A program made the position numbers and the translations under genes. A stretch of 64,000 bases of DNA from contig JACPBQ010000004.1 of assembly GCA_016180235.1 (NCBI GenBank), positions 371,352 through 435,351 on the forward strand, in the 5' to 3' direction. Under the pieces are notes generated by a model. The model was not told the origin of the DNA, searched no databases, and worked only from the letters and a program-made list of their open reading frames with translations. This document shows positions 19,475-62,415 of the stretch, one piece after another. Each line of letters begins with the position of its first letter. Within the stretch, counting starts at the first letter, position 1. The DNA is from Candidatus Woesearchaeota archaeon (lineage in GTDB: Archaea > Nanobdellota > Nanobdellia > Woesearchaeales > GW2011-AR4).

Positions 19475-19569
19475 TTTTTTTGAACCAAAATTGTGTTTTT
19501 TAGTTTTTATTATTTTTTCTTATCAAACAAAATTGATGGCAACCTTCATTTTTTGGATGAAGTTTCTTA

Positions 19570-21079: not shown

Positions 21080-21169
21080 ATACTGACGGAGGATATACCA
21101 GATATTTAAATATGTATTGGGTTTCAAATAAAGCGGAATTAAATGGTTTTTTCGTTTTTAAATCTGTTC

Positions 21170-30892: not shown

Positions 30893-30945
30893 CCAAACAA
30901 AAAGGTATATAAATTAACGACTGTTCTTTTTATTTGAAGGCAAAA

Positions 30946-32307: not shown

Positions 32308-32310
32308 AAA

Positions 32311-35359: not shown

Positions 35360-35374
35360 AATCCCTGATCAAAA

Positions 35375-36493
35375 ATGATACCATGCAAGAAATTCTATAA
35401 TGCCCTGATCCGCAACGGAATAGGCTTTTTTACCGGCGTTCCAGACTCTTTGCTGAAAGATTTCTGCGCTTACGTGACTGACAACACTCCAGAGGAAAAA
35501 AACATAATTGCAGCAAATGAGGGCAATGCAGTTGCGCTGGCTTCAGGCTATCATCTCGCAACCGGAAAAGCAGGGTTAGTGTACATGCAGAATTCCGGAT
35601 TTGGAAATACAGTAAATCCTTTAACTTCTTTGGCAGACGAGGAAGTCTATTCCATCCCGATGCTCCTGCTGATCGGATGGAGGGGAGGGCCAACTGCCAA
35701 GGATGAGCCACAGCACAAAAAAATGGGCAAAATCACACTAGAACTTTTGCAGACACTGGAAATACCCTATGAAATACTCGGTGAAAATTACGCAGAAACG
35801 ATAAAAAATGCAGCGGCCCATATGAAAAGCAGAAAATCGCCTTATGCGATTGTTGTCAAAAATGACACATTCGAAAAATATGAATTAAGGAGCAAAAAAG
35901 AGACTAATTACGGGTTAAACAGGGAAGATGCAATAAATCTCATTGTCCCTTTGCTTGACGAGAATGGCATAATTGTATCAACAACCGGAATGACCTCAAG
36001 GGAATTGTTCGAGATAAGGGAAGCAGGCAAGGAAGGCCATGAAAAGGATTTCCTCACAGTGGGATGCATGGGTCATTCCTCATCGATTGCTCTGACACTT
36101 GCAGCGGAAAAGCCCGGAAATGATGTCTATTGCCTTGACGGCGACGGGGCCTTAATAATGCACATGGGAGCTTTGGCTATAATAGGGCAGCTGAAGCCGA
36201 AGAACTTCAAGCACATTGTTTTCAATAATTTTGCCCACGATTCCGTCGGAGGGCAGCCAACCGCAGCCTATAATATCAATATTCCGGCAATTGCGAAAGC
36301 CAACGGCTACACAGACGCATTTTCCGCAGAAACCAGAGAGGATATAATAAGCAAGATAGAAGATATGAAGGAAATGGATGGGCCAGTTTTGCTTGAAATC
36401 AAAGTGAACAAAGGCGCAAGAAAAAACCTTGGAAGGCCTACAACAACGCCAATCCAGAATAAGGAAGCTTTTATGGGGTTTTTGAAAGGATAA
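35375..36493 (+). CDS. aepY: Phosphonopyruvate decarboxylase
   Basis: FTGVPDSLLK, ANEGNAVALASG, YMQNSGFGN.VNP, DEPQH, VG.MGH.SS and LDGDGA. Confidence 0.95.
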   Translation: MIPCKKFYNALIRNGIGFFTGVPDSLLKDFCAYVTDNTPEEKNIIAANEGNAVALASGYHLATGKAGLVYMQNSGFGNTVNPLTSLADEEVYSIPMLLLIGWRGGPTAKDEPQHKKMGKITLELLQTLEIPYEILGENYAETIKNAAAHMKSRKSPYAIVVKNDTFEKYELRSKKETNYGLNREDAINLIVPLLDENGIIVSTTGMTSRELFEIREAGKEGHEKDFLTVGCMGHSSSIALTLAAEKPGNDVYCLDGDGALIMHMGALAIIGQLKPKNFKHIVFNNFAHDSVGGQPTAAYNINIPAIAKANGYTDAFSAETREDIISKIEDMKEMDGPVLLEIKVNKGARKNLGRPTTTPIQNKEAFMGFLKG

Positions 36494-36494
36494 A

Positions 36495-37634
36495 ATGCCG
36501 CAGCAAGAATATTTAGGCTATAATTCGATAGAAAACTTAAGAAATATTTTATCTAAGCACATCCCTAAATCCATTTTTTTAGTTACCCATAAAGATTCTT
36601 ATGAGAGATGCGGGGCAAAATCAATAATAGACAGTTTTCTGAATAGCAGCAATCTAGCCCATTTTAATGATTTTGAGATAAACCCAAAAATAGAAGACAT
36701 TGAAAGAGGAATCAACATTTTTAAAAAGAACAATTGTGATTTTGTAATTGCCGTTGGGGGAGGCAGCGCCATGGACACTGCTAAATCAATAAATCTTTTT
36801 GCCAATAATCCCGGCAATCCAATGGACTATATCCAAAAAAAGCAAATTATAGAAAATAAAGGCAAAACTTTAGCCGCTATACCGACAACTTCCGGTTCCG
36901 GGAGCGAAGCAACGAAGTTTGCAGTCATTTACACTGAAAAAATAAAGCAGTCTTTGGAGCACGAATTCATGCTTCCTGATTACGCAATTGTCGATCCGCA
37001 GTTTACAATGAGCCTGCCAAAGTATGTCACTGCATGCAGCGGCATGGATGCCTTATCGCAAGGTATAGAATCCTATTGGTGTGTCAATTCAAATGAAGAA
37101 TCAAAAAAATACGCAAAAGAGGCAATCAAGCTCGTAATTAAAAATCTTTCTGCTGCTGTAAACAATCCCTCTAAAGAGTCAAGGGAGGCAATGTCAAAAG
37201 CAGCTCATTTGGCAGGAAAAGCCATCAATATATCAAAAACAACAGCCTGCCACGCAGTCTCTTACCCAATCACCTCTTATTTCAATCTTCCCCATGGGCA
37301 TGCAGTGGCATTGACCTTGCCATCAATGCTGATATATAACTCTAAAGTCGATGAAAACAGCTTATTGGACAAAAGAGGCATAATTTATGTCAAAAAAACC
37401 ATTAATGAAATCATAAAATTCATTGATGCTAAAAGTGCTGATGATGCGGGCAAAAAATTGCAAAATTTGATGATTGGCATAGGATTAAGCACTCAACTGG
37501 GCCAATTAGGAATAAAAACCGAAGACGATGTCAAATTGATAATCCAGCGGGGCTTTAACCCGCAAAGGGTCAACAATAACCCAAGAAGATTAACTGAAGA
37601 GGCTTTGAAAGAAATTCTGGAAAAAATAAGATGA
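36495..37634 (+). CDS. Phosphonoacetaldehyde reductase (iron-containing alcohol dehydrogenase)
   Basis: AVGGGSAMD.AK, PTTSGSGSEAT, DALSQ.IES and HAVSY...HGH; directly after aepY. Confidence 0.88.
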   Translation: MPQQEYLGYNSIENLRNILSKHIPKSIFLVTHKDSYERCGAKSIIDSFLNSSNLAHFNDFEINPKIEDIERGINIFKKNNCDFVIAVGGGSAMDTAKSINLFANNPGNPMDYIQKKQIIENKGKTLAAIPTTSGSGSEATKFAVIYTEKIKQSLEHEFMLPDYAIVDPQFTMSLPKYVTACSGMDALSQGIESYWCVNSNEESKKYAKEAIKLVIKNLSAAVNNPSKESREAMSKAAHLAGKAINISKTTACHAVSYPITSYFNLPHGHAVALTLPSMLIYNSKVDENSLLDKRGIIYVKKTINEIIKFIDAKSADDAGKKLQNLMIGIGLSTQLGQLGIKTEDDVKLIIQRGFNPQRVNNNPRRLTEEALKEILEKIR

Positions 37635-38344
37635 AAGCAATGCTGCTAAATTCAGGAGTAGGTAACAGACTTAGGCCATTTACAGATAGCAATCCAAAAT
37701 GCCTAATAAAAATCAATCATGACACCATCCTTGAGCACGAAATAAAAAACCTTTTGCATTACGGAATCAGGGATATAATAATAACAACCGGATTTTTCGA
37801 GGAAAAAATCAAGGATTTAATAAAAAACAAATTTCCTGAAGCAAACGTAAAATATGCAAAGAGCGACAAGCCGGACACAACAAATGCCATTTACTCCATG
37901 TGGCTGGCAAGGTACTTGGCGGATGACGACATATTGCTGATGCATGGCGACATGATTTTTGATAAAGAGCTGCTTGGAAGGCTCCTAAAATCAAAGCATC
38001 CCAGCTGCGCTTTAGTCAACAACAAAATAGAATTGCCGGAAAAAGACTTTAAGGCCAGGATAAACGGAGGCACTGTCATGGAAATAGGAGTGGATGTTTT
38101 CGGCAAAGATGCATTTTTCCTTGCTCCGGTTTACAGGATATCAAAAAAAGATTTTAGGCTATGGATGGAAGAAATAAGCAAATTCATAAAGAGGAAAGAT
38201 GTCACGGTATATGCGGAAAACGCCTTTAACAATATTTCCTCAAAACTCAAGCTTTATCCTGTTTATTACCAGGATGAATTCTGCATGGAAATAGACAATT
38301 TTGATGATTTACAGAAGGCAAGGAAGTTTTTTAGGCGAAAATAG
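37631..38344 (+). CDS. LicC/PntC-like NTP transferase (phosphonate cytidylyltransferase candidate)
   Basis: NSGVGNRL.P....PKCL, TNAIYS, MHGDMIFD and MEIDNFDDL. Confidence 0.85.
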   Translation: MKAMLLNSGVGNRLRPFTDSNPKCLIKINHDTILEHEIKNLLHYGIRDIIITTGFFEEKIKDLIKNKFPEANVKYAKSDKPDTTNAIYSMWLARYLADDDILLMHGDMIFDKELLGRLLKSKHPSCALVNNKIELPEKDFKARINGGTVMEIGVDVFGKDAFFLAPVYRISKKDFRLWMEEISKFIKRKDVTVYAENAFNNISSKLKLYPVYYQDEFCMEIDNFDDLQKARKFFRRK

Positions 38345-48380: not shown

Positions 48381-49265
48381 ATGGAAAAAAGCAGGCAGGC
48401 AAGAAGCTTGAAAGAAAGGATAAAAAAGTATGTCCCATTCCTGGCGCAAATCCAAATTTATAAGCTTGTCAAAAAAACAAGGTTTTTGAGGCATAAAATA
48501 TCCAGCAAGATTCTGGGTAAGGAAGACATAAAAAAAGCCTTTAGGCAGGCCGGCCTGAAAAAAAATGACATCGTTGTTGTGCATTCTTCTCTTGGCAGGA
48601 TCGGGCATGTAAAGAACGGGGCTGATGCTGTTATAGATGCTTTCCTGGAGATAATAGGCAAAAATGGGCTGCTTATCATGCCGGCTTTTTCCGCATTGAA
48701 CTATGATAAAAAAAGAAAAATGCATGTTTTTGATGTGAAAAAGACCCCAACTTATACCGGTGCAATCCCTGAGACTTTCAGAAAACGGGAAAATGTAAAA
48801 AGAAGCATATCCCCTACGCATTCCTACTGCGCTTTTGGCAGGAGAGCATCTGAATTTGTGAGAAACCATGAGAACTGCGACAACCCTTTTGCCATGAACG
48901 GCCCTTTTGGGAAGATTTACCGCTGGAATGCAAAAATTTTCCTCATCGGGGTTGATCAGCTCGCAAATACCCCTTTGCATATTGTAGAGGACAAGACGGA
49001 GTTCCCTGTCAAAGTCTTTACTGACAAATTCAAAGTTCTAGTCATAGATGATGGAAAAGAGAAAATAGTAAAGGCAAGAAAGCACCTGGACAGCCTGAGA
49101 AGGCATCGTGACCCCAACATACTGGAAAAATACTGCATGAGCTATGGGGTGATGAAAATACACAGGCTCGGAAGCACAGAACTTAGGATCCTAAATGCAA
49201 AGGATTTTGTCCATATGATGGAGGAGCTTGTCAGGAAAAACATAACAATATACCACGCAAAATGA
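48381..49265 (+). CDS. Aminoglycoside N3-acetyltransferase-family protein (AAC(3)/YokD/FrbF-like)
   Basis: VVHSSL, LIMPAFS, TGAIPETFR, RS..PTHS, IFLIGV and NT.LH.VE. Confidence 0.85.
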   Translation: MEKSRQARSLKERIKKYVPFLAQIQIYKLVKKTRFLRHKISSKILGKEDIKKAFRQAGLKKNDIVVVHSSLGRIGHVKNGADAVIDAFLEIIGKNGLLIMPAFSALNYDKKRKMHVFDVKKTPTYTGAIPETFRKRENVKRSISPTHSYCAFGRRASEFVRNHENCDNPFAMNGPFGKIYRWNAKIFLIGVDQLANTPLHIVEDKTEFPVKVFTDKFKVLVIDDGKEKIVKARKHLDSLRRHRDPNILEKYCMSYGVMKIHRLGSTELRILNAKDFVHMMEELVRKNITIYHAK

Positions 49266-50324: not shown

Positions 50325-51491
50325 TCAAATAATCTTCATATGCATTCCCGGGTTTGCTTCCAGCAATAATGCATCAATGAAAAATTTTGCTGCCCAGTTC
50401 GGGAAGCAAAATGGAGCGTACCATCCATAAATAGGAAAGGCTCCCGGAATTCCGCCTCTTATAGCCTTGTTCGAGGATGACAAGTTCTGCACCTTTTTCA
50501 TATAATTGTTGCTCTTTTTTGCCGCATCGATGAACCTTTCATCCTTTGTTTCTATGAATAATTTCTGCCATATTATTGACATCTGGGAATTTCCTGTGAG
50601 GCAGGACCATTTCACGCTGCTTTTCCAGTCCTTATCGAAGCTGCCCGGAAGAGAGCCATCATTTCTTTGCCTGCCTGCCAATGCCAAGGCAGCTTTTTCG
50701 GCAGCTTTTACATACGCTGTTTTTTTCAGGTAAAGCCCCGATTCCAAGATGCCCCTTATTGAATATGCAATCGTATGGACTAAAGGCTCCTGGCCGGGGT
50801 AGAATCCGTTATTCTGAAACCAGCCGTTTTCCTGCTGCTGCGTCAAAGCCCAAACTATATTTTTTTCAGCGGCTTTCTTATAAGAGCCTTTTTTGCTTAT
50901 CTTATGCGCCAGAAGAATGGCCCATGCAGTCCTGGAATTATATGTATGCATATGGCCCAGGTATTCATTTTTTCTCCAGCACCCGTCCTTGTCCATGACA
51001 GACAACAGCCAGTCTGCCGCTTTGACGGCTGCTTCCCTGTATTTTTTGCTTTTAGTCTCTTCGTAAGCCCTGCATAAACCAAAAATCACCTGGCCTGTGT
51101 TGAAGACTATCGGAGTGTCTTTTTTTCCCGCTCCGGGGAATGCTCCGGAAGAAAGCTGGAAATTCAATTCAAAATCTGCCATCTCAACAGCCTTTTGCCT
51201 GTAAACAGGATTTTTTGAGAAATGCGCATAATTAAAGAAAGTGGGTATGATATATCCTGTGGTTTCCACATAGGAATAAGACCATCCATCAAACAGGGAA
51301 TAAAGCGCGCTTACGCCTCCATCATTGTTCTGCTCCTGGGCATAAGACAGCCAATCCATTGCAGCTTTCATATGGGTTTCATTCGGATATGTCTTATTAT
51401 AGAGCTTAAAATAATCTTTTATAGATAAGGATGAAATCTGATAAAATTTTCCCGGATTAAGCCCTTTAATGATGTAATTTATGTATCTCAT
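50325..51491 (-). CDS. (alpha/alpha)6-barrel protein, prenyltransferase/squalene-oxidase-repeat-like, function unknown
   Basis: Repeated A.DWL...Q..DG motifs; ETTGYIIPT, FNTGQ, HTYN, HTIAY, CLTG and KFFIDAL. Confidence 0.6.
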   Translation of the reverse strand: MRYINYIIKGLNPGKFYQISSLSIKDYFKLYNKTYPNETHMKAAMDWLSYAQEQNNDGGVSALYSLFDGWSYSYVETTGYIIPTFFNYAHFSKNPVYRQKAVEMADFELNFQLSSGAFPGAGKKDTPIVFNTGQVIFGLCRAYEETKSKKYREAAVKAADWLLSVMDKDGCWRKNEYLGHMHTYNSRTAWAILLAHKISKKGSYKKAAEKNIVWALTQQQENGWFQNNGFYPGQEPLVHTIAYSIRGILESGLYLKKTAYVKAAEKAALALAGRQRNDGSLPGSFDKDWKSSVKWSCLTGNSQMSIIWQKLFIETKDERFIDAAKKSNNYMKKVQNLSSSNKAIRGGIPGAFPIYGWYAPFCFPNWAAKFFIDALLLEANPGMHMKII

Positions 51492-51513
51492 TCTTAATCA
51501 TCCCTAATCATCC

Positions 51514-52314
51514 TCAATAGTCATAAAATCCTTTTCCTGTTTTCCTGCCAAGCCTGTTTTGCCTTATCAAATCTGACAATATTGGAGACGGCTTGTATTT
51601 GTAGTCATTCAGCTGCTTAAAGAGGCTGTTAAGGATATCAAATGCAACATCAATCCCGACAAGATCCAGGATTGTTATAGGGCCAAGGGGATGGTTTGCA
51701 GTCAGCATCATGCTCCTGTCGACATCTTCTTTTGTTGCAATGCCTTTATAGACCGTGTTTGCAGCTTCATTTAGCATCGCGAACATTATCCTGTTGAACA
51801 GAAAACCGGGCTCATCCTTTACTAAAACCGGCTCTTTGCCTATTTGCCTGGCAAGGCTCAGAATGGCGCTTTTTGTTTCCCTGCTTGTTTCCGGCAGCAT
51901 CGGGATTTCAACAACTTTCATAAGCGTTGCAGGATTTGAAAGATGGAATCCTATTATATTCTTTTTGTGCTTGCAATTCGCTGCAATCACGTGCAACGGG
52001 ATAGTTGAAGAGTTTGAGGCAATGATTGCATGATCTGACGCTACCCTGTCAAGATTTTCAAATACTTCCTGCTTTATAGCCCTGTCTTCCTTAACTGATT
52101 CAATGAGCAGATCGCATTCCGACAAACTGGCATAGCTGCCTTCTATCTTTAATCTGCCAGCCATTTTCTTATCATAGAACAGCTTGCGGCAGTGGTCTTT
52201 CGCATCTTTCTTCCTTGAAACCATCATTACATAAAAGCCCCTGCTCAGGAAAAGCTCCGCTGTCTGGCAGCCCATTGTACCGCATCCTACTATGCCAATT
52301 TTCCTGATTCCCAT
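51514..52314 (-). CDS. 3-hydroxyacyl(butyryl)-CoA dehydrogenase
   Basis: GIVGCGTMG, ESVKED, ASNSST, GFH..NP, PGF.FNR, HPLGP and GRKTGKGFYDY; start 31 nt from a TATA. Confidence 0.9.
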   Translation of the reverse strand: MGIRKIGIVGCGTMGCQTAELFLSRGFYVMMVSRKKDAKDHCRKLFYDKKMAGRLKIEGSYASLSECDLLIESVKEDRAIKQEVFENLDRVASDHAIIASNSSTIPLHVIAANCKHKKNIIGFHLSNPATLMKVVEIPMLPETSRETKSAILSLARQIGKEPVLVKDEPGFLFNRIMFAMLNEAANTVYKGIATKEDVDRSMMLTANHPLGPITILDLVGIDVAFDILNSLFKQLNDYKYKPSPILSDLIRQNRLGRKTGKGFYDY

Positions 52315-52511
52315 ACTTGCATGGTTTTTAACCAGCTTTAAAAAGCTTTTCACAGAGTAAATATCATAAATTCCTGACGATATACCATGAATGAAAACAT
52401 GGATATGCAAATAGTTAACTTTAAATAGTAACCAAAAAATTCAAATAAAAATATTAATGCCATAAAATTAATTACAAACAGCAAAAATAAATAAAACTGG
52501 GTTTAATATAA

Positions 52512-53474: not shown

Positions 53475-54197
53475 GTGAAAGTTTTAATAACCGGGGGTAA
53501 AGGCGCACTGGGAAGGGCCCTTTGCAGCAAATTTGAAGGAGCTTATTGCCCGAGCCATGGAGAGATGGACATAACGGACCCAAAAGCTGTGGATAAAATA
53601 ATATCCAAATACAATCCGGACGTTTTGATTCATACAGCAGCTGTTGTCGGAGTAAGGGAATGCGAAGACGACAAGGAGAAAGCCTGGAATACCAATGTGG
53701 AAGGAACGCAGAATATAATAAATTCATTAAAAAAATTGAATAACAACTGCTATCTTATTTATATATCGACAGCATGCGTTTTTGCCGGGGAAAAGGAAAA
53801 ATACTACACGGAGAAAGATGCACCTTCACCTAAAAATTACTATTCTTTCACTAAAGCCTGCGGAGAGATTGCAGCCAGGCAATACCAGAATGCGTGCATA
53901 ATAAGGACAAATTTCGCGCCCAAGGGGCAGTGGAAATATCCCAAGGCATTTACGGACAGGTTCGGGACATACTTATTCCCGGAAAATATAGCACAGGCAA
54001 TCTCCGAAGTCATAGGGAAAAAGGAGAAAGGGATAATCCACATTGCCGGGGACAAGAGGATGAGCATGCATGAGCTGGCATTGCTGGCAGGCTCAAAAAA
54101 TACGGGAAAAATGACATTGGATGAATACAAAGGGCCTCCAGTGACAGTGGATATGAGCTTATCAACGAAAAGATGGAAAAAATACAAGATAAACTGA
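53475..54197 (+). CDS. RmlD-like NAD(P)-dependent sugar reductase
   Basis: TGGKGALG, DIT, IHTAA, YISTACVF and YSFTK; the GTG start is 30 nt after tttaaata at 53445. Confidence 0.8.
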   Translation: MKVLITGGKGALGRALCSKFEGAYCPSHGEMDITDPKAVDKIISKYNPDVLIHTAAVVGVRECEDDKEKAWNTNVEGTQNIINSLKKLNNNCYLIYISTACVFAGEKEKYYTEKDAPSPKNYYSFTKACGEIAARQYQNACIIRTNFAPKGQWKYPKAFTDRFGTYLFPENIAQAISEVIGKKEKGIIHIAGDKRMSMHELALLAGSKNTGKMTLDEYKGPPVTVDMSLSTKRWKKYKIN

Positions 54198-54199
54198 CA

Positions 54200-54748
54200 A
54201 TGGAATTAAAAAAACTGAACCTGGGCTGCGGAAAAGATATAAAAAAAGGATACATCAATCTCGACCAGTCAAAACTGGAAGGTGTTGATGTAGCGTATGA
54301 CCTTAACAAATTCCCATGGCCATTCCCAAAGAACTATTTTGACGAGATATATGCGAGGGATGCCATAGAGCATTTAAAAGACATATTCAAAGTCATGAGG
54401 GAAATAAACAGGATCTCAAAACCCGGAGCAACTGTAAAGCTAATTGTCCCTTACTGGCACTCTTCCGCAGCTTTTTACCCCAATCATTACTATTTCTTCA
54501 ATGTTGACAGCCTGAAGCTGTTCACAGAAAAAGGCAGAAGCTATGACAACCATTACGGCTTCAAGCTTGAAAAAATAAAGCTGATACCTTCCAGGATAGG
54601 CTGGCTCATACCGCCAATACCATTGCCGAAGTCCATTTTTAAGAATGTCATAGACTTAAGGCATCTTTTCAGCTATATTTTCGGGGAAATAATAGTAAAA
54701 ATCGAATTCACCCTGAAGGCAGTTAAAGATAAGTATGCTAGACAATAA
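54200..54748 (+). CDS. Class I SAM-dependent methyltransferase-like protein
   Basis: KLNLGCG, DLNKFPWPF..NYFDEI....IEH and ISKPGA...IVP. Confidence 0.8.
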   Translation: MELKKLNLGCGKDIKKGYINLDQSKLEGVDVAYDLNKFPWPFPKNYFDEIYARDAIEHLKDIFKVMREINRISKPGATVKLIVPYWHSSAAFYPNHYYFFNVDSLKLFTEKGRSYDNHYGFKLEKIKLIPSRIGWLIPPIPLPKSIFKNVIDLRHLFSYIFGEIIVKIEFTLKAVKDKYARQ

Positions 54749-55715
54749 AGGGCTTTTTTAAGAGGTATTTTTCACTGAAGATTTTTAGTATGTAACTATC
54801 ATCAGCTTTTCTCAGCCTTTGGACTTCCCTCCTCTTCTTCAATACCAGCCTAAAATTAAGAATTATCCAGAAAATTGCCTTTAGCCTGGCAAACGCATTC
54901 CCGAACTTTAATTTGGCTAAATCCCTCAGAATTGAAGCTGCTCTCATCAAAGCAACGTAAGGCAGCATGGGCAAAATTGTTTTTATCTCAAATATCCTGA
55001 AAAAAGTCATCAAAAGATTTCTTTCCAGCAAAAAAACTGATTTTGATTGGGCCTCCCATTTTTTTGTGGTGAAGGCGTGCATGTGGTAATTTATAGCTCC
55101 ATTAACCATTACAACTTTCATCCCAAGCATGCGTATCCTCAACCCAAGATCCAGATCCTCGGCATAAATAAAATAATCAGGATCAAATAAATAGCCAAAT
55201 TTGCCTATGACAGATTTTCTTATAAATCCCCCTCCCATATATGGTATTTCTGTTATTTTTTTGTTTTTATCCCTGGCATAATGGCCGCAATACATTGACC
55301 TTGAGACCCATGTGCCTCCTGAAATCACCTTGGGGTCAAAATAATTAACAGAAACATAAGTTGTCATTGCAATGCTGCTGTCTTTTTCCAAAACATCTAT
55401 GAACTTTTTAAAGCAGCCTTTATGCAGTATAAGGTCGTTATTCGCGAAATAGACATATTTCCCATTGCAATACCGCAATGCAGAATTTATTCCGACATAC
55501 CCAAGATTTTTTTTATTAGCGACTATTTTTACATTCGGATATGCTTTCTTGACGAAATCCACGCTTCCGTCGCTTGAGGCATTATCAACAAGAATGCTGT
55601 TTATCTTATCCTTGGGGTAGTCAATCTTTGAAAGCGAAGCAAGGAAATTATCCAAAACTTCCTTTCCATTGTAATTAACGACTATTACGTCAACAAAAGG
55701 GAATTTTCCGCTCAT
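54738..55715 (-). CDS. GT2 glycosyltransferase (WbbL/rhamnosyltransferase-like)
   Basis: VIVVNYNG, VDNASSDGS, NLGY, NND, YAEDLDLGLR and YH. Confidence 0.9.
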   Translation of the reverse strand: MSGKFPFVDVIVVNYNGKEVLDNFLASLSKIDYPKDKINSILVDNASSDGSVDFVKKAYPNVKIVANKKNLGYVGINSALRYCNGKYVYFANNDLILHKGCFKKFIDVLEKDSSIAMTTYVSVNYFDPKVISGGTWVSRSMYCGHYARDKNKKITEIPYMGGGFIRKSVIGKFGYLFDPDYFIYAEDLDLGLRIRMLGMKVVMVNGAINYHMHAFTTKKWEAQSKSVFLLERNLLMTFFRIFEIKTILPMLPYVALMRAASILRDLAKLKFGNAFARLKAIFWIILNFRLVLKKRREVQRLRKADDSYILKIFSEKYLLKKPFIV

Positions 55716-55723
55716 TATATCTC

Positions 55724-56677
55724 TTAATCTTTCTTTAATATATATTTTTTGTAGAGGTCTTTCATATGCATAAGCCAGCTATGGTTCGGCATTGCATAAA
55801 ACCCGCTTACTTCCATGCCATCCTCTATCGAGCTTATCAAAACAGAATTCAGCAGCACTTTGCAGTCATTTCCCACATCAACATGGTCTTTTATTGTACA
55901 GCCCAATCCTACCCATACCCTTTTTCCCAACTTGCAGCTTCCTCCAAGGCAGGTCATCCCGCAAATCCTGGTATCTTCGCCTATAGCGCAATTATGGCTT
56001 ATGTAGACAAGGTTGTCTATCTTAGCATTGTCATCTATCCTTGTCCACGCAAAGCTTGCCCTGTCAATAACAGCATTGCTCCCAATCTCAACATTATTGC
56101 CAATTCTAACCCCGCCAATGTTTATAAGCCTTGCAGCCTTGTTTTCCCTGTCCATAACAGTGCTGAAGCCTTCTCCGCCTATAACAACGCCGGAATCTAT
56201 AGTGCATTTGTTTCCAATAGAAACCTTGTCATAAATGCTCACATTCGAGCTTATAATCGTGCTGTCGCCAACCGAAACATGGCTTCCAATGACAGTATTT
56301 GGCAGTATCCTGACATTATTTCCTATCCTGACATTATTTCCAAACCTCACTGTGCTGTCGATACTGCAGCCTTTCCCAACAACCGGCTTTTCATTACCTG
56401 TATTGAAGGGCCTGAAATCCTTATGAAGGGCATTATGATATTCAATAAAAGCCAAATGAGGGTCGTCTACGATTATGTACTTGTTTCCCCTTATACCCTT
56501 GATTTTTTCATAGATATCCTTTGAGGTTAAGACAATGACACCCTGGCCATCCTTCAAGAATTTCTTATATTCAATATACTTTATGAAGCTTACTTTATTT
56601 TTTTCAATGTTCTCAAGACTACAAGTGCCGTCATTATCCGGTATGCTGTATTTTTTTTGGACAGTTTTTGGATCCAT
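55724..56677 (-). CDS. LpxD-like N-acyltransferase (left-handed beta-helix)
   Basis: IVDDPH, long hexapeptide run, VIGGEGF, GGVRIGNNVEIG.N.VIDR and KIDNLVYISHN (LpxD KIDNLVQIAHN, His retained). Confidence 0.82.
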   Translation of the reverse strand: MDPKTVQKKYSIPDNDGTCSLENIEKNKVSFIKYIEYKKFLKDGQGVIVLTSKDIYEKIKGIRGNKYIIVDDPHLAFIEYHNALHKDFRPFNTGNEKPVVGKGCSIDSTVRFGNNVRIGNNVRILPNTVIGSHVSVGDSTIISSNVSIYDKVSIGNKCTIDSGVVIGGEGFSTVMDRENKAARLINIGGVRIGNNVEIGSNAVIDRASFAWTRIDDNAKIDNLVYISHNCAIGEDTRICGMTCLGGSCKLGKRVWVGLGCTIKDHVDVGNDCKVLLNSVLISSIEDGMEVSGFYAMPNHSWLMHMKDLYKKYILKKD

Positions 56678-56686
56678 GTCAGAACT

Positions 56687-57304
56687 TTATTCTACCCACC
56701 TAAGTATCTCAAATGCTTCAGCATATTCTTCATTTGCCGAATGGCCGCGTATTTTTGCGACGCTTTTTAGCATCTCCGGGCTCCTCATTGCCCTTACCTC
56801 TGATTTATAGCATGAGTATGCCTTTAACTTGCGATTCATGTCAACCGGGACAAAATAATTCAGCTTGAGGGGAAAAGGGTTCCAAATGGACTGATGGAAT
56901 GTCTCAAATATCAACACTTTTTTCACAAAGAAATTTGTGTCATGCGGCCTTAAAGCAACCAGCGCAGCATTATAAACAGCCCTGTGGTCCTGGTTGTAAT
57001 CTGGGCAGGGTATGAAAACGCGCTCCGGCCTGAGCTTGTTTATGAGCTTTTCAAAAATAGGGATCAATTCCTGCGCTTTGTAGGAATTTACCTTGCTTTC
57101 CCTGTTATAATCCCATTTTATGCCAAGGAATGATGCTGCCGCTTCCAGCTCCTTTAATCTTTGGTTTACAGGCAGCTGGCCTGCGGCCATATTGCTCTCG
57201 TCAACCCCGCAATAATACACAAATGAATCCTCATTTAATACGCTGACACAACCCAAAGCTTCATCATCAGCGTGCGGCGAAAAAACCAAATTTTTGCATG
57301 TCAT
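56687..57304 (-). CDS. PIG-L/LmbE-family de-N-acetylase
   Basis: SPHADDEALG (HxDD), QDH, and K..A...Y.SE ... AEAF. Confidence 0.88.
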   Translation of the reverse strand: MTCKNLVFSPHADDEALGCVSVLNEDSFVYYCGVDESNMAAGQLPVNQRLKELEAAASFLGIKWDYNRESKVNSYKAQELIPIFEKLINKLRPERVFIPCPDYNQDHRAVYNAALVALRPHDTNFFVKKVLIFETFHQSIWNPFPLKLNYFVPVDMNRKLKAYSCYKSEVRAMRSPEMLKSVAKIRGHSANEEYAEAFEILRWVE

Positions 57305-57405
57305 AATGACTCATCTAATCAAGTGGTTTCAATAGTGATTATTTAAACTTTTTTATACGGTAACGAAAGCAAATATTATAAAAAGGCCCAGATTAACGCC
57401 TGCCT

Positions 57406-57741
57406 ATGATAACGGGAATTGGTGTTGATATAGAATCTGTTAACCGGTTTAAAGGCCTGTGCAAAGACAAGCATTTTCTCAGCCTCGTATTCACAAAGCG
57501 CGAGAGGGACTATTGCCAAAGAATGAAAGAGCCCCATATAAGCTATGCCGGCAAATTTTGCGCCAAGGAAGCTGTAATGAAAGCAAATTCAAAAAAACTG
57601 GATATCAAAGACATTGAAATCATCAATGCTTCAAATGATAAGCCAGAAGCCTACATCAAAAGAAAAAAGATGAAAAGCGTACACTGCAGCATCTCGCACA
57701 CTAAAACCCATGTGATTGCCTTTGCAGTGATTGAAAAATAA
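57406..57741 (+). CDS. acpS: Holo-ACP synthase (4'-phosphopantetheinyl transferase)
   Basis: GIGVDIE...RF, FT.RE..YC, AGKFCAKEA and SISH....AFA. Confidence 0.92.
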   Translation: MITGIGVDIESVNRFKGLCKDKHFLSLVFTKRERDYCQRMKEPHISYAGKFCAKEAVMKANSKKLDIKDIEIINASNDKPEAYIKRKKMKSVHCSISHTKTHVIAFAVIEK

Positions 57742-57746
57742 GCTAA

Positions 57747-58895
57747 TCATTCTTCCAGCTTTTTCTTCATCTCGTTCAAAAAATCAGCGACATATTTGCC
57801 GTTGCACACCCTATGATCGAAGGCTACAGTGAGATTGAGCTTTTTGCCGTAAGCAGCCTTTCCATCCTCATGCACTGCAGAATCATATTCTGCACCTATG
57901 CCAAGGATTGCAGACTGCCATGCATTAACAATAGGCTCAAACTGGAGTATCCCATGAGACGAAAAATCGCTGATTGTAAAAGTCCCATCCTGCAGATCCC
58001 CCACATGGATCTCTTTTTTGATCAACTGCAGCAGCAACTCCTTTATTTTTGCTGAAAATTTATCGAGCTGCAACCTGTCCGCATTATGTATTACCGGGAC
58101 AAAAAGATCTGTACCGATATTCATGGCATAGCCTATATTCACATCCTTGTACCTGCAGATAAAGCCATTTTCATAATAAGAATTCAATAAGGGATATTTT
58201 AACAAGGCCCTGGCTGCATTATAGGATATGTATTCTCCAAGGCTCAGCATTATCCTTTTTTCTTTTGCATATTCCTCGACTTTTTGCAATAGCTTCCTTG
58301 TTGAAACTGATACTGTCAGGGACGACTGCAGGTATTCTTTGCTGTGGCTGAGGTACTCAATCTCGGTTTTTTTGATGTTATTTACTGCTATCCTCTCGAC
58401 ATTTCCACGCCGGGACTTTTGAACATTCTGAATATATTCCTTTACATCATCTTCCTTGATAATTTTACCGCTGCCTGCAAATGCATCTGACAAGTCAATG
58501 CTATGCTCCCTGGCCAGCTTCTTTGCCGAAGGGGTCGCTTTGATTTCATAATTAAACTCATTTTGCCCTCTTGCGGCAGCCTGCTCTGACGGCATTGCTG
58601 TTTTTGAGGTGCCTGCTTTTGAGCTATGTTTTCTATGCAGCTGCGGAATCTTGTCGCCTTTCTGCCCAATATAACCGACTTCGTCAAGAACATTGGCATC
58701 TTCGCCCTCCCTGCAATTCAGCGCCAAGATTTTCCCATCCCCATCCGCTTCAATCACAAAGGTGGCTTTATATGTCTCAATTTCAAATATAGGATCGCCT
58801 TTCTTTACATTGTCACCTTCCTTAAAATTCAATTTACCTATCTTAACCTCTTCAATATTTGCACCCATCTTCGGTATGAATATTACTGTTCCCAT
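57747..58895 (-). CDS. Dihydrolipoamide acyltransferase (E2)-like protein: lipoyl, PSBD and catalytic domains
   Basis: EIETYKA lipoyl-Lys, ATPSAKKLARE...I.EDDV (PSBD), GTFTIS and AFDHRVCNG. Confidence 0.88.
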   Translation of the reverse strand: MGTVIFIPKMGANIEEVKIGKLNFKEGDNVKKGDPIFEIETYKATFVIEADGDGKILALNCREGEDANVLDEVGYIGQKGDKIPQLHRKHSSKAGTSKTAMPSEQAAARGQNEFNYEIKATPSAKKLAREHSIDLSDAFAGSGKIIKEDDVKEYIQNVQKSRRGNVERIAVNNIKKTEIEYLSHSKEYLQSSLTVSVSTRKLLQKVEEYAKEKRIMLSLGEYISYNAARALLKYPLLNSYYENGFICRYKDVNIGYAMNIGTDLFVPVIHNADRLQLDKFSAKIKELLLQLIKKEIHVGDLQDGTFTISDFSSHGILQFEPIVNAWQSAILGIGAEYDSAVHEDGKAAYGKKLNLTVAFDHRVCNGKYVADFLNEMKKKLEE

Positions 58896-58904
58896 TTTTA
58901 TCGC

Positions 58905-59879
58905 TCATTCATTGATTATGCTCCATGCTTCTTTCTCTATCCTTTCCGCAGTCGGAAGCACTTTCCTCTCAAGATCAGGAGCAGATGGAATGGGGACATC
59001 CATGGTGCATACCCTTCTTATAGCCGAGTCCAGCGAGTAAAAGCACTCCTCATTTATCCTTGCAATAATCTCTGCACTTATACCACATTCTGAATACCCT
59101 TCTTCCACGACAAGGACTTTCCCAATCCGCTTAACAGAAGACTTGATTGTCTGCATGTCAAGGGGCTTAATGGTCCGCAGGTCTATAATCTCAATTGAAA
59201 TCCCTTTTTTTTCGAAAGCTTCCGCAACATCCAGGCAGTCCTTAACGCTCTTGCTGTATGTTATAATCAGGAGATCCTTCCCTTGCCTTATGACTTCTGC
59301 CTTTCCCAGCGGGATAAACTCCGGATATCCTTTTTCCTCCTCTTCAATAGCATAAAGGTTCTTATTTTCAATAAAAATCACGGGATTTTTATCCTCTATC
59401 GACGCTTTCAGCAGCCCCTTCACATCAGAATTCCTGTAAGGCGCGACAATTTTTATGCCCGGGATGTGCATAAGCGGGGCGATTATGCTCTTTGAATGTG
59501 TTGCCCCATAGCCCCTTCCGGCGCCGGCAGCAACACGGATAACCAACGGAACATTTACTTCTCCGTGCGTAAGATAACAAAAAATGCTCGCATGGTTAAA
59601 AAGCTGGTCGTAGGCCAATGTCATGAAGTCCATGAACATGATTTCTACAATCGGCTTGAGGCCATTAATTGCTGCCCCAATGCCTAGGCCGACTATTGCC
59701 TGCTCAGACATTGGCGTGTCAATGATCCTTTTTGGGCCATACTTCTCCAACAGGCCCCTGGTCGCGCCAAAACAGCCACCATATTTACCTATATCCTCGC
59801 CAATTATAAAGACCGATGGGTCTTTCTCCAAAGACTCATCAAGAGCTTCTTTTATCAGCTGGGCGTAGTTCTTTTTCAT
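58905..59879 (-). CDS. 2-oxoacid dehydrogenase E1 beta subunit-like
   Basis: GEDIG.YGG.FG, DTPMSE, EIMFMDF, HSKS and EIIDLRTIKPLD. Confidence 0.93.
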   Translation of the reverse strand: MKKNYAQLIKEALDESLEKDPSVFIIGEDIGKYGGCFGATRGLLEKYGPKRIIDTPMSEQAIVGLGIGAAINGLKPIVEIMFMDFMTLAYDQLFNHASIFCYLTHGEVNVPLVIRVAAGAGRGYGATHSKSIIAPLMHIPGIKIVAPYRNSDVKGLLKASIEDKNPVIFIENKNLYAIEEEEKGYPEFIPLGKAEVIRQGKDLLIITYSKSVKDCLDVAEAFEKKGISIEIIDLRTIKPLDMQTIKSSVKRIGKVLVVEEGYSECGISAEIIARINEECFYSLDSAIRRVCTMDVPIPSAPDLERKVLPTAERIEKEAWSIINE

Positions 59880-59880
59880 C

Positions 59881-60825
59881 TTAATCCTTGTATATATTTG
59901 CGCTTACCTCAAAATCTTCACGTTCAGAATTGCGGCTTATAATCTCTTCTGAGAGTGAATCCAATTTTTCCCTGATTTTTCCCTTAATCTTCTGGATTCC
60001 TTCCCCGGTTATTTTTTTTGACACCAACAGCTCTTTTTCGAGGCATGCAAGCGCGTCCTTTTCCATCCAAAATTTTTCCTCTTCTTTATCCCTATACAGA
60101 TTCTGGTCATTCTTTGAGTGGCCGCAGTGCCTGTAGGTCTTCACCTCAATAAAAAACGGCTGTGGTTTTTTGCGTATTTGGGATATAAATTCCTTCGCAA
60201 CAGAATCAAGCTTCCTAAAATCATTCTCATCGACCAGCTCACATTGAATATTGTAGGCCTTTACCTTGCCAATAATCTCGCTGCTATGGCCGACACTTGT
60301 GGGAGTAGACATCGCGTAATGGTTATTTTCACAAACAAAAAGAACAGGCAGATCCATAACCGAGGCAAGATTCAGTGACTCAGAGACGTAGCCTTCATTG
60401 AAACCCCCATCACCAAGGAATGCCACAACAACATTATTGCTGTTCTTGTACTTATTTGCAAACGCAAGGCCGTTTGCAATAGGTATCATTCCCCCGCTAA
60501 CCCCGTTTGCAATAAAGTTCTGCTTTATGGAGCTGACATGCTGGGAGCCCCCCATGCCATGATTATAGCCGGCAGATTTGCCCATAAGTTCAGCCAAAAA
60601 TTTTTTTATATCCAGCCTCTTTGAGATTGCATGTCCATGGCCCCTATGTGTGCTAGTTACAAAATCCTCATCTGTCAAATACTGGGAAATTATTGCAGGA
60701 ATAAACTCCTGGCCTATGCAGAAATGGGCTGTTCCCCCAACCAAGCCGCGCTTAAACAGTTCGCTCAGCTTGTTTTCAAATTCCCTGATGAAGCAGATTT
60801 CCTCGTATATTTTTAAATCGTCCAT
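59881..60825 (-). CDS. 2-oxoacid dehydrogenase E1 alpha subunit-like (TPP)
   Basis: HFCIGQE, STHRGHGH, the GDG...ENN TPP motif and TYRHCGHS. Confidence 0.93.
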   Translation of the reverse strand: MDDLKIYEEICFIREFENKLSELFKRGLVGGTAHFCIGQEFIPAIISQYLTDEDFVTSTHRGHGHAISKRLDIKKFLAELMGKSAGYNHGMGGSQHVSSIKQNFIANGVSGGMIPIANGLAFANKYKNSNNVVVAFLGDGGFNEGYVSESLNLASVMDLPVLFVCENNHYAMSTPTSVGHSSEIIGKVKAYNIQCELVDENDFRKLDSVAKEFISQIRKKPQPFFIEVKTYRHCGHSKNDQNLYRDKEEEKFWMEKDALACLEKELLVSKKITGEGIQKIKGKIREKLDSLSEEIISRNSEREDFEVSANIYKD

Positions 60826-60845
60826 GCCTTAGCAAACGAAAAAAC

Positions 60846-60854
60846 ATTTAAATA
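60846..60854. promoter_or_regulatory. Shared palindromic TATA between E1alpha (-) and ACP (+)
   Basis: atttaaat(a) lies in a 51-bp gap, about 27-30 nt from both start codons. Confidence 0.55.
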
Positions 60855-60876
60855 GGTTTCCTTTTTCTTCAAAGGC

Positions 60877-61107
60877 ATGCAGACGAAGAAACCAAGCAAG
60901 GACGAGCTGATTGTATTTTTTTCAGAATTCTGGAAAATAGACCAGGATGAAGTCACGGATAAACTTGAGCTAAACAGCAAATCACTTCCCGGGTTTGATT
61001 CTCTACGGCTGTTCCAGTTCTTTGCAGCAGTTGAATTCAAATTCAAAGTAAAAATCAAGAAACTGAACAGCATCCGCACTTTCGGCGAACTCTTCAATAA
61101 TATCTGA
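60877..61107 (+). CDS. Acyl carrier protein
   Basis: 76 aa with FDSL (phosphopantetheine Ser) followed by ...VE.KF.V.I....IRTFGEL. Confidence 0.82.
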   Translation: MQTKKPSKDELIVFFSEFWKIDQDEVTDKLELNSKSLPGFDSLRLFQFFAAVEFKFKVKIKKLNSIRTFGELFNNI

Positions 61108-61149: not shown

Positions 61150-62415
61150 TCATCTTTGGCCTATGCCCCTGTATGCAATACCAATCTTTTTTATCTTTTC
61201 CTTGTTAAGGCAATTCCTTCCGTCAATTACTATCTTGATATTGTTCTCCTTTAATTTTCCGATATCTATATTCCTAAACATAGAGTGGTCCGCAGCCAGA
61301 ATTATATACTCCACTTTTCCGAGCAGCGTGCTTAATTCCTTTACATCGCTTTTTTCCCTGATGTAGGGGTCAAAAACCAGAACTTCTGCCTGTTTCTCTT
61401 TTAGCACTTCTATAACTTTAAGCGCAGGGCTTTCCCTCATGTCATCAACATCTGCCTTGTATGCGAGCCCTAAAACACCGACCTTTGCCCCTTTTATGCC
61501 TTTTTTCAGCTTTTTCAGCTCTTCTTCCAGCAATTGCACCGTGTAGTGAGGCATATTATTGTTTATTTCCCTTGCCAAGCTCAAAAACCTGTGGTTAAAT
61601 CCTATCTGCTTTGCCTTTTCTATCAGGTAATAAGGGTCAACCGGGATGCAGTGGCCACCTACTCCAACGCCGGGGTAATGTGCCATGAACGCAAACGGCT
61701 TTGTAGAAGCCCCTTTGATGATCTCAAGAATATCAATCCCTGCCTTGTCGAAGCTCATGGCCATCTCATTTATGAATGCAATGTTCACATCCCTAAAAGT
61801 ATTTTCCATGATTTTTGCGGCTTCCGCAGCCTTTGCGCTGCTCAGTTTCGTTATATCCGCATCAATAATTTTCTTATAGAATTCATAGGCTTTTTCCGTC
61901 GATTTTTTGTCGATTCCCGCGACTACCCTTGGAAGGTTTTTTACTGTCCACTTTTTATTTCCAGGGACTATCCTTTCAGGGCAGTGGGCAAGATAAAAGA
62001 CAACATCGGACTTTTTCAGTATTGGCAGCACTATTTCTTCCGTTGTTCCCGGGTAAATGGTCGATTCTATAACCACCAGGGTATTTTCTTTAAGATGCCC
62101 GGATATCGATATGCATGCATCCTTTAACGGCTTTAAATCAGGAAGATGCCTGTCATCCACGGGAGTAGGGACGCATACAATAACAACCGAAGAATTTTTT
62201 ATTGCCTGAAAATTATCAGCAGCCTTTATTTTTCCCTTTGACTTTCTCACTTCCTCTATCAAATCGGGATCGTTGATGGGGCTAATTCCTTTGTTAATCT
62301 GATCTACCTTATTTTTGTTTATGTCTATGCCATAAACATCCATGCCTTTTTCAGCGCATAAGCATGCCAACGGCAGCCCTACATAACCCAGCCCAACTAT
62401 AGTTACTGATGCCAT
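61150..62415 (-). CDS. wecC: UDP-N-acetylhexosamine 6-dehydrogenase (WecC/WbpA family)
   Basis: GLGYVGLP, VIESTIYPGTT, CPERI.PG, KIMEN.FRDVNIA, GVGGHCIPVDP and YKADVDD.RESP. Confidence 0.93.
   Translation of the reverse strand: MASVTIVGLGYVGLPLACLCAEKGMDVYGIDINKNKVDQINKGISPINDPDLIEEVRKSKGKIKAADNFQAIKNSSVVIVCVPTPVDDRHLPDLKPLKDACISISGHLKENTLVVIESTIYPGTTEEIVLPILKKSDVVFYLAHCPERIVPGNKKWTVKNLPRVVAGIDKKSTEKAYEFYKKIIDADITKLSSAKAAEAAKIMENTFRDVNIAFINEMAMSFDKAGIDILEIIKGASTKPFAFMAHYPGVGVGGHCIPVDPYYLIEKAKQIGFNHRFLSLAREINNNMPHYTVQLLEEELKKLKKGIKGAKVGVLGLAYKADVDDMRESPALKVIEVLKEKQAEVLVFDPYIREKSDVKELSTLLGKVEYIILAADHSMFRNIDIGKLKENNIKIVIDGRNCLNKEKIKKIGIAYRGIGQR

Follow-up and report, generated by a model that had tools for sequence, protein, structure and literature searches.

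Priming of a carrier protein by pyruvate dehydrogenase (PDH)-like E1/E2 enzymes is established or proposed in the biosynthesis of quinocarcin/naphthyridinomycin, scleric acid (SclQ1-4 plus SclP) and pepteridines, and likewise in certain pathways that lead to N-acyl amides and pristinamycin (PMC6335953; PMC5384830). The scleric acid cluster encodes an acyl carrier protein (ACP) of 76 amino acids (aa), E1 alpha (E1a)-like and E1 beta (E1b)-like proteins of ~305 and ~338 aa, a lipoyl-E2 of ~386 aa and a phosphopantetheinyl transferase (PPTase; PMC6335953), and in the pepteridine pathway of Photorhabdus the Plu2796 protein unites E2, T and C domains in one fusion and is accompanied by an E1-like subunit (PMC5384830). 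We have analyzed a 64-kb stretch of DNA, C9:371352-435351, referred to as the window, from a 1.04-Mb, 81% complete genome assembly labelled G000, in which eight adjacent genes encode an ACP, E1a, E1b, E2, an AcpS-type PPTase, a PIG-L family de-N-acetylase, an LpxD-like acyltransferase and a GT2 glycosyltransferase. From the gene families and their contexts, we consider it probable that these genes encode a system of two modules through which a nucleotide amino sugar exchanges one N-acyl group for another. Labels beginning with G, L and P denote related genomes, loci and proteins, respectively. G000 encodes a uS2 of the eukaryotic/archaeal type and a PriS/PriL primase, as in an archaeal genome, and since homologues of the window E2 carry the names Pacearchaeota and Woesearchaeota, the genome is taken to be that of a DPANN-type archaeon; no small-subunit rRNA is present in the assembly.

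The window carries the same gene set as the quinocarcin, naphthyridinomycin and scleric acid clusters (ACP, E1a, E1b, lipoyl-E2 and PPTase), with protein sizes nearly the same as in the scleric acid cluster, and here too the lipoyl arm would hand its acyl group to a carrier protein and not to coenzyme A (CoA). The likeness is one of gene set: QncN, QncL and SclQ2-4 do not occur among the named top matches of the window proteins, and the AcpS-type PPTase of the window has 111 aa, in contrast to the 213-aa scleric acid protein. While the described clusters, in which PDH/transketolase-like enzymes (QncN/QncL/QncM, NapB/NapD and SclQ1-4 with SclP) charge an ACP with a glycolyl unit, feed actinomycete nonribosomal peptide synthetase (NRPS) lines, the window set lies within a DPANN glycan island beside the gene for an LpxD-like sugar N-acyltransferase. 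With the pepteridine pathway, the window system would share direct priming of the carrier arm from 2-oxoacids, as proposed there, and the use of an E3 encoded at a different site in the genome (PMC5384830), and a protein from a related locus, P0078, also fuses E2 to an ACP. In the pepteridine pathway, however, the acceptor is a pterin, reached via an NRPS condensation domain, whereas the acceptor here would be a sugar amine, reached via a left-handed β-helix transferase.

With respect to the sugar, in the LpxC/LpxD steps of the Raetz pathway a UDP-GlcNAc derivative first loses its N-acetyl group and then receives an N-acyl group from acyl-ACP, which is the order envisaged here, and the LpxD-like protein retains the catalytic His. 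Differences are that the deacetylase is a PIG-L protein, that the LpxD-like protein misses the LpxD equivalog cut-off and belongs to a clade of its own with ≤38% identity to true LpxDs, that no LpxB was found in G000, and that, judging from the gene content, the acyl group probably derives from a lipoyl enzyme and not from fatty acid synthesis as in lipid A. The rhizobial NodB/NodA/NodF-NodE/NodC system of Nod-factor synthesis combines a GT2 that makes or transfers the sugar, a deacetylase that frees the amine and an N-acyltransferase that uses an acyl group from a dedicated ACP. The window genes follow the same logic of deacetylation and re-acylation with a dedicated ACP, although the deacetylase and acyltransferase families are unrelated to the Nod enzymes and the Nod chain is a fatty acid built by ketosynthases, not by E1/E2. 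In two related settings, L016/L017 and the P0008 contig, the partners of the ACP are an MBOAT and a DltD-like DUF1574 protein, recalling the DltC/DltB logic of DltA-D; the Dlt carrier is, however, loaded with D-alanine by an adenylating enzyme, and the window lacks an MBOAT. As in a canonical 2-oxoacid dehydrogenase, E1a, E1b, an E2 composed of lipoyl, peripheral subunit-binding and core domains, and E3 are all encoded with intact motifs, but the window set differs from the canonical complex in its private ACP, often joined by AcpS, its separate E2 clade, its accessory occurrence in glycan loci and its presumed acceptor, the ACP. A full-text literature search yielded no account that joins an E1/E2-fed ACP with deacetylation and re-acylation for a glycan, nor of such a module in archaea, in agreement with an earlier sequence-only reading of this DNA, which knew of no described glycan pathway, archaeal ones in particular, that has exactly this gene set.

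The eight genes are contiguous and form two head-to-head arrangements, with every ORF in the position and the family that the sequence-only reading had given it. The first arrangement consists of the ACP gene (60877-61107, + strand) diverging from E1a (59881-60825), E1b (58905-59879) and E2 (57747-58895), all on the - strand, and the second of the AcpS gene (57406-57741, + strand) diverging from PIG-L (56687-57304), the LpxD-like gene (55724-56677) and GT2 (54738-55715), again on the - strand. The 51-bp region between the E1a and ACP genes (60826-60876) contains a single central TATA-like box, TTTAAATA at 60847-60854, which, read from the sequence, lies 22-23 bp from the start codons of both genes. 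This central position fits a shared bidirectional archaeal promoter, and we infer that E1a and ACP are expressed from one.

The 60877-61107 ORF encodes a 76-aa protein, referred to as type A (ACP-A), which is, on the evidence of its orthologue profile and predicted structure, a carrier protein with the helical-bundle ACP fold. A profile of its orthologues matches ACPs in the PDB (E=8e-5), its AlphaFold2 model has a predicted local distance difference test (pLDDT) score of 93.2, and the best 50 Foldseek matches to this model are all ACPs, with template modelling (TM) scores of 0.65-0.77, including an ACP bound to LpxD. The predicted phosphopantetheine site, Ser42 in the motif GFDSL, is invariant across 15 orthologues and is located at the start of helix 2 (residues 42-56). 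No other carrier protein candidate was found in G000, and the ACP-A family as a whole is tiny, with 38 representative clusters among 1.84 billion proteins. The window ACP is basic, with a calculated pI of 9.0 and 13 Lys plus Arg vs 11 Asp plus Glu, the pI of its orthologues ranging from 4.6 to 9.1; classical ACPs are strongly acidic. The 111-aa AcpS-type PPTase matches PF01648 (59.7 bits) and TIGR00556 (69.6 vs a cut-off of 45.35), falls under the cut-off of the equivalog TIGR00516 (55.9 vs 59.8) and has intact GIGVDI and KFCAKEA motifs.

E1a is a short (314 aa) thiamine pyrophosphate (TPP)-binding subunit (PF00676, 200 bits) in which the TPP motif, GDG-x26-NN, occurs at residue 138. E1b matches PF02779 and PF02780 and scores 354 bits against PRK09212, for which the cut-off is 321, and E2 contains the lipoyl (PF00364), E3-binding subunit (PF02817) and 2-oxoacid_dh catalytic core (PF00198) domains. 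Both the lipoyl-accepting Lys43 (ETYKA in the window protein) and the catalytic His361 (DHRVCNG in the window protein) are invariant in the clade to which this E2 belongs. The window E2 has ~8 close relatives at 44-49% identity, followed by generic E2s at ≤32%; when the genome contigs were scanned with a profile of the clade alignment, distant bacterial E2s at ≤31% identity were among the matches listed. E1a presents a similar picture, being 58-62% identical to ACP-linked orthologues and 45% to an E1a from a Saganbacteria glycan cluster, whereas its identity to the canonical E1a that related genomes encode is just 29-32%.

A supply module consisting of ACP, E1a, E1b and E2, often with AcpS, E3, LplA and LipA, is present in at least 10 other loci, which share as their core a small ACP gene divergent from E1a-E1b-...-E2; the metagenome scan for ACP loci used a profile from a five-sequence ACP alignment. 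On the L016/L017 Pacearchaeota contig the module comprises ACP, E1a, E1b, E3, LplA, LipA, E2 and AcpS, with the MBOAT and DltD-like DUF1574 genes beside ACP, while the P0008 contig carries DUF1574, E1a, E1b, E2, AcpS and MBOAT, no ACP gene being called in the gap upstream of E1a. In L018, pyruvate kinase is co-directional with ACP, a small hexapeptide transferase follows E2 and teichoic acid-type genes are present; G005 has an AlgX-like SGNH protein within the operon; E3-LplA-LipA lie within the operon in G126, L078 and L076, the last with AcpS beside E2; the P0006 contig carries E3, E2, AcpS, ACP and E1a; in L064 AcpS is present and no ACP was identified; and in L065 the partner is a GNAT. 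Overall, AcpS adjoins the module in the window as well as at five of these loci, namely L016/L017, L064, L076 and the contigs of P0008 and P0006, and E3-LplA-LipA are inside the operon in six. The acyltransferase partner therefore varies between LpxD-like, MBOAT with DltD-like DUF1574, AlgX-like, small hexapeptide and GNAT proteins, and it is this variation around an unchanging core that one would expect if the module supplies acyl groups. Adjoining the AcpS gene of the L064 module is a gene for a DUF362 protein with an intein that carries a LAGLIDADG endonuclease (L064:15465-18104).

The phyletic distribution separates the ACP-linked enzymes from ordinary 2-oxoacid dehydrogenases. ACP-A occurs in two of 41 related genomes, G000 and G005, which are exactly those that hold the close E2 clade, and across the phylum this clade is found in three of 401 genomes and is absent from a genome of the same genus. 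Relatives possess canonical E1a-E1b-E2 genes without an ACP, ~30% identical to the window proteins in E1a and E2, and G005 carries both a canonical and an ACP-linked E2. In a tree of E2 catalytic domains, a group with 99% support stands apart from 41 canonical E2s and takes in the ACP-linked E2s, proteins from ACP/AcpS loci that consist of a free-standing E2 core, and a further five sequences. One of these five, P0078, is composed of a lipoyl domain, an E2 core and a C-terminal ACP domain.

P0078 (505 aa) is encoded at L089:7969-13471 together with a fused E1ab protein (541 aa), a small hexapeptide transferase, FdtA and a DegT aminotransferase, and this locus is, on its gene content, a 3-amino-sugar pathway with its N-acyltransferase. 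The L089 surroundings are a polysaccharide setting of the ABC transporter type broken by several transposase genes. Further fusions were detected among nine longer matches to the ACP-A profile that were scanned: seven are ACP-A::AcpS fusions, in which the AcpS domain follows ACP-A, and one fuses a hexapeptide transferase to ACP-A. At L066:7833-10900 (Saganbacteria, JACRPM010000001.1), one protein joins a lipoyl domain to a sugar N-acyltransferase of the PglD_N/hexapeptide kind; the genes for E1a (45% identical to that of the window) and E1b come next, and the surrounding nonulosonic acid cluster also encodes NeuB, a CMP-transferase, PIG-L, an ATP-grasp protein, an ACP and two FabH-like proteins. 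The fusions thus link E1 with the lipoyl arm, the E2 core with ACP, ACP with AcpS, and ACP with left-handed-helix acyltransferases. The sequence-only reading had tied E1/E2 to the ACP, and this tie is strengthened by the conserved divergent ACP-E1a pair, the exact co-occurrence in two of 41 genomes and the lipoyl-E2-ACP fusion of a sister clade. Combined, the genomic context suggests that the acyl acceptor of E1/E2 is ACP rather than CoA.

A number of observations weigh against this interpretation. The ACP has no Pfam PP-binding match and, in the Pfam and NCBIfam searches, scores 21 bits against NF002150, for which the cut-off is 66. The window E1/E2 set is the sole one in G000 and could, because of this, also or exclusively make acetyl-CoA. 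The single E3 of the genome, at C9:231752-233173 (TIGR01350, 567 bits vs a cut-off of 409), lies ~197 kb from the module, outside the island. Neither lipoate-protein ligase nor lipoyl synthase was found in G000 by tblastn with LplA and LipA of L016, an absence that is not conclusive because the genome is just 81% complete; the sole BPL/LplA-family (PF03099) match is BirA, beside biotin carboxylase. The complete eight-gene set occurs in no other locus, save contigs with an identical E2 protein and the same gene order. Finally, E1a resembles pyruvate-specific PDH most closely, and with an acetyl product the removal and re-addition of acetyl would seem futile unless the group were elaborated.

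One alternative is that E1ab and E2, with the distant E3, are a housekeeping PDH that makes acetyl-CoA, for example for the many N-acetyltransferases of the island, and that ACP is loaded otherwise, in which case the genes would be neighbours because the island uses both and not because acyl groups pass directly between their products. In addition to the sole E2 and the bona fide E3, this explanation can draw on the similarity of E1a to human PDH E1a, the nearest structure, on an E1b score over the PDH E1b cut-off, and on the acetyl-CoA-type transferases of the island, which include an AAC(3)-like protein (48381-49265) alongside hexapeptide proteins of small size. We nevertheless consider it quite unlikely, since the clade is ~30% identical to canonical E1a and E2 and coexists with a canonical E2 in G005, is rare and accessory in the phylum, tracks ACP-A exactly and has a lipoyl-E2-ACP fusion in its sister clade, and no alternative ACP loader lies within the window. 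A second explanation, that E1/E2, ACP and the LpxD-like enzyme are uncoupled and are neighbours by chance in a gene-packed glycan region, would be in keeping with the absence of the complete eight-gene set from other loci and with an island that is mosaic and varies among close relatives. It is hardly credible given that sub-modules recur across loci at 45-70% identity, that co-occurrence is exact and that there are several independent fusion proteins. Of the eight-gene synteny that the sequence-only reading anticipated, what stands is the recurrence of each module at this level of identity; the eight genes do not form one conserved unit. As judged by these gene orders, the proposed acyl-swapping system is two exchangeable, recombining modules.

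Many ACP-A loci lack E1 (the metagenome loci L072-L075, L079-L081 and L086) and instead contain ACP-A, a 167-aa hexapeptide transferase, AcpS and a 203-aa protein that consists of the E2 core only, together with a second ACP, MaoC, a short-chain dehydrogenase/reductase (SDR) and an FkbH-like protein of ~585 aa with HAD and GNAT-like parts. FkbH enzymes load glyceryl units onto ACPs, and the E1-less variant may represent a glyceryl- or lactyl-ACP route to glycan acylation. As ACP-A and the E2 core both persist in these loci, the pair appears to be the constant element, with hydroxy-acyl groups as a recurring theme.

The second module of the proposed system, the acceptor module, centres on the LpxD-like protein. 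This 317-aa protein scores 248 bits against PRK00892 (cut-off 207), just below the cut-off of the equivalog TIGR01853 (235.6 vs 242.5) and 22.9 bits vs 30.8 for the N-domain PF04613; its best PDB matches are LpxD chains aligned over residues 17-302, and the catalytic His228, Asn229 and Gly246 are invariant with true LpxDs. Its clade has ~15 members, which are 46-76% identical, whereas the best matches outside the clade, most of them named bacterial LpxD, reach ≤38%. Nearly all aligned archaeal LpxD-like members have a Trp at position 255 (GKRVWVG), where true LpxDs have Met, Ile or Leu, and this residue might narrow the acyl groove. The 205-aa PIG-L protein (PF02585, 41 bits vs 28.2) has the metal-binding motif PHADD at residue 10, and GT2 (PF00535, E=2e-20) is encoded by the last gene of the unit. 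Two further conserved partners of the cassette, identified by Pfam matches, are an RmlD-like reductase (53475-54197, + strand) and a methyltransferase (54173-54748, + strand).

The cassette is conserved in L067, with orthologue identities of 63% for PIG-L, 63% for the LpxD-like protein, 60% for GT2, 71% for the methyltransferase and 71% for the RmlD-like reductase; the PIG-L gene adjoins the LpxD-like gene, and the methyltransferase and RmlD-like genes occur in the same order beside GT2. Between the LpxD-like and GT2 genes, however, L067 carries a MaoC hydratase, a different ACP, an AMP-ligase, an iron-dependent alcohol dehydrogenase (Fe-ADH), LuxE, LuxC and an Sfp-type PPTase, an AMP-ligase-type acyl-ACP cassette that is repeated in L068. 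In L069 the LpxD-like enzyme is accompanied by an aminotransferase in place of the deacetylase and by neither an ACP nor a PPTase, and in G007 the LpxD-like gene, at a contig end, lies beside a WbpB/E/D-like triad, a sugar dehydrogenase and a GT2 (40% orthologue). Thus, ACP and PPTase accompany the LpxD-like enzyme in the window, L067 and L068, and an enzyme that makes a free sugar amine adjoins its gene in the window, L067 and L069. On this comparison of loci, the loader of the acceptor module is swappable, and we regard the different loader of the L067 cassette as the best evidence that E1/E2 stands in for the AMP-ligase in the window. Domain annotation of the proteins encoded in the window found no AMP-ligase, FabD or ketosynthase, and with no second carrier protein in the genome and no other loader in the window, E1/E2 is favoured as the source of the acyl-ACP. 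The sequence-only reading had also tied the LpxD-like enzyme to the ACP, and the conserved PIG-L/LpxD-like/GT2 cassette, located beside a different ACP loader in L067, supports such a tie.

The LpxD relationship raises the alternative that acetyl-ACP serves as a primer which fatty acid-type enzymes extend, the LpxD-like enzyme then making an N-(hydroxy)fatty-acyl glucosamine glycolipid or anchor resembling a fragment of lipid A. LpxD enzymes are established users of 3-hydroxyacyl-ACP, the L067/L068 cassette includes a fatty acid-type AMP-ligase, MaoC and LuxC/LuxE, and G000 encodes FabZ, FabG-like and thiolase-domain proteins, a crotonase by E3, GpsA, a PlsC-type acyltransferase and an LpxC-family protein at C6:32375-33307. 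The enzymes near E3 belong to a stretch of bacterial-type lipid/C4 genes (C9:226260-238701) encoding a FabZ-like protein, the crotonase, which is head-to-tail with E3, E3 itself, an SDR resembling FabG/acetoacetyl-CoA reductase, a GpsA-type NAD-dependent glycerol-3-phosphate dehydrogenase and the PlsC-type acyltransferase; in the same stretch, two thiolase-domain ORFs that share a near-identical segment flank a gene for a DUF362 protein. The LpxC-family match (PF03331, 76 bits) covers model positions 1-184 of 268. Elongation into a lipid is nonetheless very unlikely in our estimation: the window has no ketosynthase or FabD and tblastn revealed no FabH-type match in the genome; the thiolases are CoA-type enzymes; no LpxB was found and, beyond the small hexapeptide transferase of the island, tblastn found no further LpxD/LpxA-type left-handed-helix protein in G000, a search that included no LpxA-specific model; the LpxC-like gene stands alone on a different contig, and the LpxC family occurs in four of the 41 related genomes, three of which are without both ACP-A and the LpxD-like gene; and the partners of the supply module elsewhere are O-acyltransferases typical of short acyl groups.

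From the gene identities, motifs, predicted ACP fold, synteny, co-occurrence and fusions observed, a sequence of chemical steps can be proposed for the acyl-swapping system, in which the transfer from E2 to ACP is likewise conjectural, as are the identities of the sugar substrate and of the acyl group. AcpS would convert ACP to holo-ACP at Ser42. E1ab, with TPP, would take a short 2-oxoacid, most likely pyruvate with a ketol donor as an alternative, and reductively acylate the lipoyl-Lys43 of E2, whose core, through His361, would then pass the acyl group to the phosphopantetheine thiol of ACP and not to CoA, the dihydrolipoyl arm being re-oxidized by the single, distant E3. PIG-L would strip the N-acetyl group from a UDP-HexNAc, perhaps one that the island enzymes have converted to a uronic or diamino derivative, the LpxD-like enzyme would use His228 to acylate the resulting free amine from acyl-ACP, and GT2 would then install the sugar in a surface glycan. 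The overall mechanism in the sequence-only reading is supported by comparative genomics, through synteny, co-occurrence and fusions, in the form of two modules.

Which acyl group ends on the sugar can be suggested in rough outline. Acetyl is a tentative first choice, for which speak the human PDH E1a as the closest solved structure to E1a, an E1b that passes the PDH E1b subfamily cut-off and the pyruvate kinase gene beside ACP in L018, which hints that pyruvate, and not a ketose phosphate, is the donor. MBOAT and AlgX partners, which are typical of O-acetylation, are counted in its favour, and the futility of exchanging acetyl for acetyl counts against it in plain form. A 3-hydroxybutyryl group, formed by elongation and reduction of an acetyl unit, is possible with somewhat less confidence, in view of the use of 3-hydroxyacyl-ACP by LpxD enzymes, a 3-hydroxybutyryl-CoA dehydrogenase-like gene in the window (51514-52410), MaoC in the L067 cassette and the crotonase, thiolase, FabZ and FabG-like genes by E3; we give the same weight to groups other than those named here. 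Glycolyl, suggested by a gene set identical to SclQ1-4 plus SclP and QncN/L/M, is rather doubtful. As a guide to the donor, E1 similarity does not decide among pyruvate, acetoin-like and ketose substrates as the labels conflict: E1a is nearest to PDH 'y-type' E1a in the PDB and NCBIfam, and some orthologues are labelled acetoin-type by JGI. Phosphonoacetyl, which the sequence-only reading had mentioned as a remote option, is unlikely because the phosphonopyruvate decarboxylase-like (Ppd) and Fe-ADH enzymes of the island already account for phosphonopyruvate and have no link to E1.

The 3-hydroxybutyryl-CoA dehydrogenase-like protein (- strand; PF02737 and PF00725; PRK05808 at 250 bits, under the cut-off) could provide an acyl-tailoring step, its membership of the system being uncertain; neither a thiolase nor a hydratase is encoded within the 64-kb window. 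Its gene lies directly upstream of that for an (alpha/alpha)6-barrel-like protein, whose matches to Pec_lyase, SQHop_cyclase and GH88 are weak, the pair spanning 50325-52410. On the other side of the system, the ACP gene adjoins that for a nucleotide-sugar 6-dehydrogenase of the UDP-ManNAc/GlcNAc type (61150-62415, - strand; TIGR03026, 431 bits), a recurring neighbour whose homologues accompany the module in G005 and L064 and, in G007, the LpxD-like gene.

As the sequence-only reading had placed it, the system is located in a glycan island, which spans the entire 64-kb window and encodes many GT1, GT2 and GT4 glycosyltransferases, two flippases, PMT-like proteins and a dTDP-sugar set. A WbpB/WbpE/WbpD-like triad (18380-21127) consists of a GFO/IDH/MocA oxidoreductase, a 159-aa hexapeptide transferase and a DegT aminotransferase, and an asparagine synthase-like amidotransferase is encoded at 27983-29815; together these suggest 2,3-diamino uronic acid sugars such as those of methanogen N-glycans. 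The AAC(3)-like protein, a member of the aminoglycoside-3-N-acetyltransferase family (PF02522, E=3e-52) whose gene adjoins that for a UDP-GlcNAc 2-epimerase, probably acetylates sugar amines and is less likely to confer resistance. A hydroxyethylphosphonate-type operon (33513-38344) encodes a cytidylyltransferase, a fusion of a cytidylyltransferase with phosphoenolpyruvate mutase (PepM), the Ppd TPP enzyme, the Fe-ADH and a nucleotidyltransferase, and two sulfatase-fold proteins (30934-33432) are encoded upstream.

The antigenicity and stability of surface glycans, and their recognition by phages and hosts, are shaped by unusual N- and O-acyl groups on the sugars, many of which have no known acyl source. 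To our knowledge, archaea generally lack ACP-based metabolism, and we know of PDH-type acyl-ACP generation documented so far in just a few antibiotic pathways. A broader and more speculative extension of our results, which we hold tentatively, is that acyl-ACP synthesis driven by lipoate and independent of CoA serves as a general plug-in to decorate cell-surface glycans that is shared horizontally among DPANN archaea, candidate phyla radiation (CPR) and other bacteria, can be exchanged for FkbH- or AMP-ligase-type loaders and, in the window, deacetylates a hexosamine and directly re-acylates it with a group other than acetyl, for instance glycolyl or 3-hydroxybutyryl. This would constitute a new biosynthetic origin of N-glycolyl or N-hydroxyacyl sugars. 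The modular swaps, in which one acceptor cassette is found with an E1/E2 or an AMP-ligase loader and one ACP with LpxD-like, MBOAT or hexapeptide partners, provide a testable framework, and the proteins involved are small and soluble. If the proposed system is correct, a PDH-type machine would serve as a private acyl-ACP generator for glycan decoration, and an ACP, an AcpS and a relative of LpxD would be at work in archaea.

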